DNA of 64,000 bases from assembly GCF_017348835.2 (NCBI RefSeq), contig NZ_CP072312.1; one strand, written 5' to 3'. A program made the position numbers. Within the stretch, counting starts at the first letter, position 1; each line of letters opens with the position of its first letter. This DNA is from Escherichia coli (GTDB lineage: Bacteria > Pseudomonadota > Gammaproteobacteria > Enterobacterales > Enterobacteriaceae). Shown piece after piece: positions 27,001-30,000 of this stretch.

Positions 27001-30000
27001 AATATAAAATAATGTTTTTTATAAAAATAGTCAGTACTACCCCTACAAAGCGGTGTCGGTGCGTTGTTGTAGCCGCGCCGACACCGCTTTTTTAAATATC
27101 ATAAAGAGAGTAAGAGAAACTAATTTTTCATAAAACTCTATTTATAAATAAAAATCAGCAAAAACTTGTTTTTGCGTGGGGTGTGGTGCTTTTGGTGGTG
27201 AGAACCACCAATCTGTTGAGCCTTTTTGTGGAGTGGGTTAAATTATTTACGGATAAAGTCACCAGAGGTGGAAAAATGAAAAAATGGATGTTAGCCATCT
27301 GCCTGATGTTTATAAATGAGATCTGCCATGCCACTGATTGCTTTGATCTTGCAGGCCGGGATTACAAAATAGATCCTGATTTACTGAGAGCAATATCATG
27401 GAAAGAATCCCGTTACCGGGTTAATGCCATCGGTATTAATCCGGTAACGGGATATGGCAGCGGACTGATGCAGGTAGATTCCCAGCATTTTAACGAACTG
27501 GCCCGCTATGGAATTAAGCCGGAACATCTGACAACAGATCCCTGCATGAACATTTATACCGGTGCTTATTATCTGGCAATAGCCTTTAAAAAATGGGGCG
27601 TCTCCTGGGAGGCCGTTGGTGCATACAATGCCGGATTCAGGAAGACCGAACACCAGAACCAGAGACGTCTTGCCTACGCATCAGATGTTTACCGGATTTA
27701 TACCGGGATAAAAAGCAGTAAAGGTATCCAGATTCCGGCCACGAAGAAATCACTTCCGGAAATTAACAGCGTGCAGAACAATTAATCTTACAGACATTGT
27801 CAGATACCGGTTATGCCGCAAAAGCGGCATGGAAGGCCACACACAAAAATATCATATGAGTGACAATACTGACTGGCCGAAGCCCCGCGAAGCGGGCAAT
27901 GCCGTTCACTTAAGCGGAGCGGTGCTGCGTTTCACCGGATAACGGGTTTTTGATATCTTAACTGCCCTCGGCCTTGATGGTCGGGGGCGTTTTGTTATGA
28001 ACACAACTTCCAGAGCACCCCGCAGATGCTCCAGTCGTTTCGGGATGGTCCCCGGTGATGCCGTATTTCCCAGCACTATCATTTCTGTCGCGATAAACTG
28101 GAACGCGAACTTAAAGCTGATTTCTGACGCCGCTTTTTTGTGTTTCTCAGCCGCTTTTGTTGCCTCACGCCGTATCAGGTTGTAAGCCAGCAACATGCCC
28201 CACACCTCCTGTTCCAGCAGCTCAACCTTACGGCTTCTCAGCACCAGGGCATTGTTCAGCAGGCTGCTTTTCAGGTTTCTGAACCCGACTTCGATTTCCC
28301 ATCGTGAATGGTAAAGTTCCGCTACCTCTTTTGCTTTGTAGCGGTCTGCCGGGAGTGATGTCTGCACCGTTTTCTCCACACCGTTCACCTCATAAGTCAC
28401 CGCCCGGGCGTACCAGAACTCTGGCAGTGCAGGATTCTTTTTCCTCGCCTGCAGCGACACCTTCAGTTTCAGAAGCCTGTCTCCGGGACCGTAACTTTCT
28501 TCTGTTTCTGCCGCGATATTCTTCCACGCAGGCAGTAGCCAGTGGCGGTTACAACCCTGCTGGTTCAGCGTCAGCAGCAGGTCTGCGCTGTAAAAGAGCT
28601 TGTCAAACAGCGTAATGGAGTTATCCGGGATAGTGGCGAGCATGGAGTGAGCCGGCACGGTTTCGCTCCGCCGGTAAGGCGCGGTCACGGCATTCAGCAA
28701 AATGTGGCTTCCCAGATTCATCAACGCCACCAGACGCATGACCGGGTAGGCGCTCTGCCGCTCAGTGGATGTGTTGGCAGAGCCATAATATTCACGCAAC
28801 TCAGGTTCATCAGGTGTCCTGAACGGTGCGCCATCAATGGCAAAAAGCTGCAGGCCGTGCCAGTCATCCTTCAGGTAACGTTCCGAGCCCCATGTCTGTG
28901 CGGTCTGGCGGAAGAGCCATTCCACCGGGGCGGCCCCCACGCGCTGACGCGCCTGGGTGACAGCGCTGCGGGCCAGCAGGTTCATCCCCGCTTCGCCATC
29001 CGCGCTCAGGTTCAGACGGCGAACCACATCGGTAATTGGCTCATTGCGGAAAAAGGCCATGGCCACCACCATCCAGATAACCATGTCCCCCGGTAAACGA
29101 CGGCGGCGAACGGTCGCATGCGCAGAAAGCGTCAGACAGTGCTGTATCCACTCGACGGGAAGGTGCTCTGCAAACAGTTGTGCAGAGGGCGGTGGCATAA
29201 GCGGATGGTCACTGAAATCGAGCAGATCATTGAGAAGTGGCATAAGAAAACGGCTCCCTGTTGTGGAAGCCGTTATAGTGCCGCAGTTTAAGGATCGGTC
29301 AACCGATCCTTAACTGATCGGCATTGCGCGAAGCGGGAACCCATCTTATATATAACCGGTAACTGCGCAGCCTCCTGCCAGACCATTTTTCGCGGGCACA
29401 ATATTTACAGACAACCGGAAAGCCAGTTGATGAAATTGAGGTATATCAGACGACACAGCGATGCCGAAGAATGATAATATAAGTAAAGCCCCGAAAATTT
29501 TTCGGGGCTTTACTTATATTATCATGACTTCCACTTTCTGAACTGTTCGGCAATCACCCATAACGCCTTGTTGATTCTTATATCACCATCAATACCTGTA
29601 ATGGCTCTTGTCCTGGTATTTTTCCCGGAGGCACTTCGCCCCGATAATCCACCTTTTATCATATTCTCCTGAGCCCGCTGCCAGGTTGTCCAGAGATCGT
29701 TCTGTTTATTCTCCCGACGACGGGGAGTAATTATCTGTTCAGGCGTCACTGGCGTTTTATTTTCATCTTCATACCTGACCATCAGTGCAGCTCTGCCAAA
29801 TAAATGTTGCTCGTCACTGTTAAGATGAATTTCTTTCATCGCCTCCATATTATCAGTGACCTTATCAAAGACACCGAGTACTTCATACGCTCCCTCGATA
29901 ACCTGCCCGACAATATCACCTTTATGTGGAACGCGGATTTCGCCAAAATTATTTCCGCACACCAGGCCATTTGTGCAGACAAAACGAAAAATTCCGGGGA

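Follow-up and report, generated by a model that had tools for sequence, protein, structure and literature searches.

An IS4-subgroup insertion sequence in the orf169-DUF932 spacer of a pO103-type plasmid and the GC-rich dyads at its insertion sites

The DNA analyzed here (the window; 64,000 nucleotides of Escherichia coli contig NZ_CP072312.1, assembly GCF_017348835.2) belongs to a pO103-type enterohaemolysin (ehxCABD) virulence plasmid. An insertion sequence was found at 27897-29326 (1,430 bp, minus-strand orientation) in the 3'-to-3' spacer of two convergent genes, orf169 and a DUF932/orf273-like gene, neither of which is interrupted. The element is very probably a complete and apparently functional member of the IS4 subgroup, which would have reached this spacer by cut-and-paste transposition with an 11-bp stagger and would target GC dyads. 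An earlier note on this DNA had reported an IS4-family element at 27886-29337 with an intact 11-bp target duplication beside orf169; family, duplication and position were all borne out. The features which define the element and its target are listed below.

27897-29326, minus strand: complete IS4-family, IS4-subgroup insertion sequence (full-length matches, nine independent insertions, subgroup criteria of PMC2266710)
27906-29243, minus strand: transposase gene, 445 amino acids, uninterrupted (open reading frame (ORF), Pfam, NCBIfam, motif positions)
27886-27896, no strand: left target-site duplication, 11 bp, CGCGAAGCGGG (direct reading, repeat search; single copy in empty sites)
29327-29337, no strand: right target-site duplication, 11 bp, CGCGAAGCGGG (direct reading, repeat search)
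27897-27914, no strand: terminal inverted repeat at the transposase-distal end, CAATGCCGTTCACTTAAG, holding the transposase stop codon (16 of 18 positions match the other end)
29309-29326, no strand: terminal inverted repeat at the transposase-proximal end, CTTAACTGATCGGCATTG (direct reading, inverted-repeat search)
27884-27896, no strand: original target palindrome CCCGC-GAA-GCGGG, full dyad (direct reading; perfect 5-bp stem, 3-nt loop)

Boundaries, transposase and family assignment

The 11-mer CGCGAAGCGGG occurs exactly twice in the window, and both copies directly abut the element (27897 CAATGCCGTTCACTTAAG... and ...CTTAACTGATCGGCATTG 29326). Dinucleotide-preserving shuffles gave an expectation of 0.05 copies, and two or more copies were obtained in 0 of 100 shuffles. 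The repeat is exactly 11 bp long, because the neighboring bases differ on both sides (preceding base c on the left versus G on the right, following base C versus a). The 18-bp terminal inverted repeats are imperfect, as had been claimed, with CAATGCCGTTCACTTAAG matching the complement of CTTAACTGATCGGCATTG at 16 of 18 positions. Full-length database matches are 99.8-100% identical and are labelled ‘IS4 family transposase’.

Nine independent insertion sites were compared, the window and the eight listed below; only fixed natural insertions were sampled.

gnd 3' end, chromosome (locus L007): duplication of 11 bp
tssB-IS21, plasmid (L004): duplication of 11 bp
between a cI-like repressor and N, prophage (L019): duplication of 11 bp
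copM-silE, ATCC 8739 (L038): duplication of 11 bp
ssrA-ypjA (L039): duplication of 10 bp
inside plasmid umuD (L041): duplication of 10 bp
K-12 insZ remnant, tdk-adhE (L008): duplication of 10 bp
373-bp derivative resembling miniature inverted-repeat transposable elements (MITEs), Enterobacteriaceae bacterium LSJC7 (L014): duplication of 10 bp

Since the same ends are flanked by different 10-11-bp duplications at the eight other sites, the termini are independently fixed. In every independent copy the repeat boundaries coincide with the inverted-repeat termini, the point on which the earlier note had made its boundaries depend.

For the empty site, which that note had proposed to look for in related plasmids, the two flanks were joined with one repeat copy and the resulting 800 bp were used as query. 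The query was contiguous in 4,069 plasmid records, mostly F-type, and related plasmids hold a single CGCGAAGCGGG in an uninterrupted spacer. Deleting the element and one repeat copy from the window restores the orf169-DUF932 spacer base for base. In NZ_CP148340.1 and pMAR2, the alignment is unbroken through the junction and contains one copy of the 11-mer, which in pMAR2 is the loop variant CGCAAAGCGGG with the stem kept. A stretch of 10 nt inside the element (28987-28996, CCCGCTTCGC), read as its reverse complement, is identical to the core of the target duplication. This match is probably a coincidence, because the other targets have no such match.

A single transposase ORF fills the element except for 9 bp at one end and 83 bp at the other. 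The IS4 family in the sense of De Palmenaer, Siguier and Mahillon (2008) is recognized by D(60-110)D(100-150)E spacing of the catalytic residues, by a YREK motif, by the presence of one ORF only and by target duplications near 10 bp (PMC2266710). In the window transposase, the predicted catalytic residues are D137, D214 and E318 (offsets of 77 and 104 residues), assigned by aligning the protein to IS4 InsG and from its Pfam DDE_Tnp_1 match, and the Y(2)R(3)E(6)K motif, YHSRWEIEVGFRNLK, is complete at residues 311-325 (Y311, R314, E318, K325). The gene consists of one ORF with no programmed frameshift, and a search of this ORF for a frameshift or a missing catalytic residue found none. The duplications correspond to about one helical turn, with 11 bp here and 10-11 bp at the eight other sites. 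Domain matches agree with this family: Pfam Nterm_IS4 (PF13006) scored 109 bits (1.3e-31; cut-off 25), Pfam DDE_Tnp_1 (PF01609) 79.5 bits (3.8e-22; cut-off 23) and NCBIfam NF033592 transpos_IS4_1 255 bits (cut-off 115). Members of the IS4 subgroup measure 1,400-1,650 bp, carry the end signature -AATR--------WTW---- and produce direct repeats of 10-13 bp (PMC2266710). The window element has 1,430 bp, an 11-bp repeat and ends which both read cAATG........(T/G)TA, placing AATR at positions 2-5 and WTW at positions 14-16. Within the IS4 subgroup it is a member of its own and not IS4 itself.

The element is already known, being annotated in hundreds of E. coli records, and is not a new kind of element. 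Databases label its protein only as ‘IS4 family transposase’ and the names of the protein clusters are generic; neither a matching name nor a matching end sequence was found in the supplements of the IS4-family review. ISEc13 was suspected as the name of the element; papers confirm ISEc13 only as an IS4-family name, which is in use for the annotation of E. coli.

Activity of the element

The sequences compared suggest that the element is probably competent for transposition, but rarely transposes. An intact transposase ORF is present in the window as well as in 8 of the 10 compared copies. At least seven different sites are occupied by copies with mutual identities of 98.5-99.4%, and four copies are present in one genome; this implies that transposition occurred in the not-too-distant past. 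Strain OkiPb01684 carries three further copies. A few findings weigh against activity: the median is one copy per genome, the protein alleles are each tied to one site, and activity is deduced from intact motifs alone.

The single copies and the site-bound alleles would also fit an immobile fossil, either intact by chance or recently inactivated, which travels passively on its plasmid. Several pseudogene copies (pO103, the silE site of ATCC 8739 and the K-12 insZ remnant) fit such a fossil. So does strain Z1323HEC0422, in which NZ_CP148342.1 has the occupied site with a 100% identical element, and the same target on the co-resident NZ_CP148340.1 is still empty. However, the 445-amino-acid ORF with all its catalytic motifs intact, the near-identical copies at different sites and the genome with four copies speak against a fossil, which we regard as rather unlikely.

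Target sites

The palindrome reported at the insertion site, CCCGC-GAA-GCGGG, is real, and its center lies at most 1 nt from the center of the duplication. It requires, however, the two C's at 27884-27885, and the full dyad is kept on the left flank only, because these two bases fall outside the duplication. Its folding energy as DNA (-5.3 kcal/mol, z = -0.9) is not exceptional when taken alone. The possibility that this hairpin is the terminator of orf169 was rejected, since neither strand has a T-run, the terminator scan made no call and the fold energy is unexceptional.

On the sequences compared, the palindrome at the window site is one weak case of a general target preference of this element and its relatives. 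In 8 of 9 reconstituted targets, a perfect stem of 4 bp or more is centered within about 1 nt of the duplication center. A perfect stem of at least 5 bp centered on the duplication is present in 7 of 9, compared to a fraction of 0.027 among random window positions; the binomial probability of this result is estimated to be about 1e-9. Among the eight target sites folded, five reached DNA-fold z values of -3.2 to -5.2. Within the window, 44 sites of the form CCC-N7-10-GGG exist, and only the used one has at least two further inner pairs. For base counts, 18 half-sites were aligned on the cut positions, with the following result.

Half-site position -5: A in 16 of 18
Half-site position -2: C in 13 of 18
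Half-site position -1: C in 14 of 18
Half-site position +1: C in 15 of 18
Half-site position +3: C in 14 of 18

The target consensus reads A-N-S-C-C/C-N-C ... G-N-G/G-G-S-N-T, with the cuts at the slashes. In most targets, the hairpin is preceded by an A-run, followed by a T-run, or both, and by sequence most look like Rho-independent or bidirectional terminators located between genes. Eight exact transposase alleles, which were looked up in addition, all map to either the gnd 3' end or the orf169-DUF932 spacer and gave no new targets; many chromosomal matches at 99.4% represent the same gnd site.

Whether the transposase itself actively selects GC-rich, terminator-like dyads (CC/C-N8-9-G/GG with flanking A and T at about 5 nt) is, in our judgment, an even question. 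Such selection would amount to a safe-haven strategy at gene ends with repeatedly used hot spots, for instance the orf169-DUF932 spacer (pO103-type versus pO55 alleles) and the gnd terminator. Three observations have to be counted against it: the window target is weak (z = -0.9), the tssB-IS21 site is essentially without a dyad (1 of 9), and the terminator bias possibly is in part due to selection, as only surviving insertions were sampled.

The latter point can be extended to survivorship as the full explanation, in which case the element would insert broadly and only copies in gene-end hairpins would be neutral enough to persist. The restriction to fixed natural insertions, the intergenic position of most sites, the site inside umuD and the site without a dyad are all compatible with survivorship. 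However, at 8 of 9 sites the centers of duplication and dyad agree to about 1 nt, and selection for harmless intergenic sites would not impose a register such as A at -5 (16 of 18 half-sites) and C at -1/+1. The umuD insertion lies within a coding sequence, yet still occupies CCCC-ATGCA-GGGG. Furthermore, target-arm specificity has been reported for the IS4 subgroup (PMC2266710). The fixed register at the cuts, therefore, favors recognition by the transposase over survivorship alone, and we consider survivorship unlikely.

For the transposition itself, the following mechanism is proposed by analogy with Tn5/IS50 and Tn10/IS10, which are the members of the family that have been studied. A transposase dimer would synapse both ends and excise the element by cut-and-paste through hairpin intermediates; the two 3'-OH ends would be joined to the target with an 11-bp stagger between its strands, and repair of the gaps would yield the 11-bp duplication. 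In the sites compared, the stagger of this element and its close relatives is centered on short GC-rich dyads, both arms of which would be read by a symmetric transpososome; the two-fold symmetry of such a complex would account for the symmetric target consensus. Landing at gene ends would make insertions nearly harmless and would, therefore, allow long persistence as single, site-bound copies. It counts against this proposal that the hairpin-type cut-and-paste is extrapolated from Tn5/Tn10 and that no solved structure is detectably similar by sequence (a search of the PDB with the transposase gave no match).

Hairpin targeting fits known tendencies of the IS4 group. A literature search for a terminator-targeting rule in IS4-group elements returned nothing specific, and no paper was found that describes such targeting for the window element. 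IS231A, IS186, IS10 and IS50 produce duplications of 9-12 bp, and their symmetric target preferences are ascribed to a two-fold-symmetric transpososome. These elements belong to other subgroups with other consensus sequences, and their transposases do not have the Nterm_IS4 domain arrangement of the window transposase. The consensus of IS231A and IS186 is oriented GGG-N-CCC, whereas that of the window element is CCC-N-GGG. Target specificity of IS231 is noted in the IS4-family review (PMC2266710). ISRm22 (IS4 family, IS4Sa subgroup), IS1397, ISKpn1 and IS621 insert specifically into short extragenic REP/BIME palindromes (PMC1525189; PMC2266710). In contrast to these repeated REP families, the window element has targets which are GC dyads of single copy, not related to one another and for the most part terminator-like. 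IS1397, ISKpn1 and IS621 furthermore belong to other families.

Spread, relatives and plasmid context

The earlier note had called the insertion recent. The exact repeats and the intact ORF agree with this wording, but the insertion is shared across pO103-type plasmids from several serotypes and pO55, and the claim is only loosely true. An exact 11-bp repeat says little about age. Identical junctions were found in pO103 of the O103:H2 strain 12009, the copy of which carries an internal stop in its transposase (codon 348), and in the 127-kb plasmid p01_3327-1; at least 20 other O103/O121-type plasmids carry the same insertion at 99.8-100% identity. The exact window protein has the same SLT and DUF932 neighbors in 25 of 25 contigs read. 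Junctions, duplication and orientation are also identical in pO55 of O55:H7 (NC_013942.1; L062 501-1933). The pO55 copy differs from the window copy by 16 substitutions and a 3-bp indel (19 alignment positions, 98.7% identity), and the 500-bp flanks of the two are 99.4-99.8% identical. Accordingly, an insertion which is recent and private to the window plasmid or isolate is very improbable. In its favor are the exact repeats, the intact ORF and three database plasmids with a 100% identical element; it is contradicted by the shared junctions in all the plasmids named above, and the 1.3% divergence of the pO55 copy speaks against very recent clonal spread from one molecule.

Copies in the orf169-DUF932 spacer differ by 2-19 alignment positions. 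In a neighbor-joining tree, the window copy is 8-10 differences away from the gnd, prophage, tssB and ssrA copies, and 16 from the pO55 copy. The gnd site likewise has two alleles, which are separated by 22 differences. By sequence, the orf169-DUF932 hairpin may have been hit twice and may thus be a hot spot; alternatively, one old plasmid insertion may later have seeded other sites or exchanged sequence with them. On either reading, the distribution examined marks the insertion as a lineage marker common to pO103-type plasmids and not as a private recent event.

For the comparison with IS4-family reference elements, which the earlier note had suggested, IS4 of E. coli K-12 (insG, 1,426 bp; NC_000913.3 4502090-4503515) was used. 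Both elements share family, subgroup, a single ORF ending inside one inverted repeat, 18-bp inverted repeats with two mismatches, a subterminal palindrome, the end motif AATGCCG.TCA.TTAAG, duplications of 11-12 bp and YREK at the equivalent position. The transposases are, however, only 38% identical on amino acid level and the DNA about 49% overall; the transposase-proximal 34 bp are 97% identical and there is no megablast-level similarity beyond that end. The first base of the window element is C rather than T. The usual ISfinder practice for isoforms is >95% amino acid or >90% DNA identity, and the near-identity to the reference which this implies was not found. Thus, despite the similar size (1,430 versus 1,426 bp), the common gene layout, the proximal end and the inverted-repeat core, the idea that the element is a copy of the classical K-12 IS4 is refuted, its identity values being far under any isoform threshold. 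The targets differ as well, since the resident K-12 IS4 occupies an AT-flanked target which is not a GC dyad, with the 12-bp duplication ATCTTGGTTCTG. This target fits the AAA-N20-TTT rule of the IS4 literature of the 1980s.

A closer relative is the K-12 ‘insZ’ pseudogene between tdk and adhE (L008 1501-2489, E. coli K-12 RP437), which is 92.5% identical to the window element at both ends. It has 989 bp, is deleted internally and frameshifted, and is thus a dead relative rather than the same element. It sits in the GC hairpin GGCCCC-AGAA-GGGGCC with a 10-bp duplication, and about 3,000 of the 5,426 complete genomes of E. coli contain it. A left-end scan of one genome per species gave seven loci, mostly fragments or diverged remnants. 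The MITE-like derivative in LSJC7 (373 bp; L014 about 3970-4342) keeps the two ends only (approximately element positions 1-213 and 1276-1430, with 83-88% identity), and its 10-bp duplication CGCCATATGG lies inside a terminator-like hairpin. On NZ_CP129270.1 (L043 601-2006) and about 70 APEC/ColV-type plasmids, a 1,405-bp relative with 90% identity was observed. Its transposase is frameshifted and contains stops, and on many large avian/ExPEC plasmids it adjoins a TolC-family gene. The flanks of this relative read ...CGCTATGCCGa-IS-CGCTATGCCGg; the end coordinates used, of which one may be off by one base, did not score as an exact repeat, and a 10-bp duplication in NZ_CP129270.1 is probable from these flanks.

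Three structures inside the window element were recorded in addition.

27963-27989, plus strand: terminator-like hairpin with T-run, facing transcription from orf169 (consensus scan only; putative function)
29249-29274, minus strand: hairpin directly upstream of the transposase ATG, with a stem of 10 pairs and then TTCTTATG (putative function)
29288-29313, no strand: subterminal palindrome with perfect 12-bp arms, TTAAGGATCGGT-CA-ACCGATCCTTAA, which overlaps the inverted repeat (repeat search; end conserved with IS4)

The 3' arm of the hairpin at 29249-29274 holds a GGGAG Shine-Dalgarno sequence, and the region has a sub-threshold Rfam hairpin match. By analogy, this hairpin may block translation of read-through transcripts, and the three structures together may insulate transposase expression from outside transcription. 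Such insulation is a common arrangement in insertion sequences. Within the element and at the target, no Rfam match exceeded the threshold; the nearby matches were FinP (97 bits) and the traJ 5'UTR (125 bits) only, both strong, at 26286-26397.

The local gene order is an IS3-family element, a traJ stub, traM (minus strand), oriT, orf169/SLT (plus strand), the window element, the DUF932 gene (minus strand) and leading-region genes. The product of orf169, which lies beside oriT, is an SLT-domain lytic transglycosylase. As traJ of pO103 is reduced to a stub next to the IS3-family element, this ehx plasmid appears to have kept a remnant of the transfer region, with traM, oriT and orf169. The DUF932/orf273-like gene (29522-30420, minus strand) is frameshifted in the window and split into two overlapping ORFs (29522-30124 and 30001-30420); it is annotated as ‘frameshifted’ in pO103 and is intact (822 bp) in p01_3327-1 and pO55. 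Just past its stop codon, at 29475-29521, a very strong bidirectional terminator-like hairpin with a AAAGCCCCGAAAAATTTTCGGGGCTTT core and 20 pairs is present. This hairpin, about 150 bp from the insertion, was not used as a target, and its CCC...GGG spacing is wider than that of the used sites.

For annotation, the exact limits of this mobile element of an EHEC (enterohaemorrhagic E. coli) virulence plasmid are fixed, together with its orientation and family. The known picture of this kind of element is unchanged. The point of wider interest, a modest and testable addition, is that the element and its relatives consistently target terminator-like hairpins rich in GC. The hairpin preference could be used to predict insertion hot spots and, if it is driven by the transposase, would be a simple example of a DDE transposon finding harmless landing sites.

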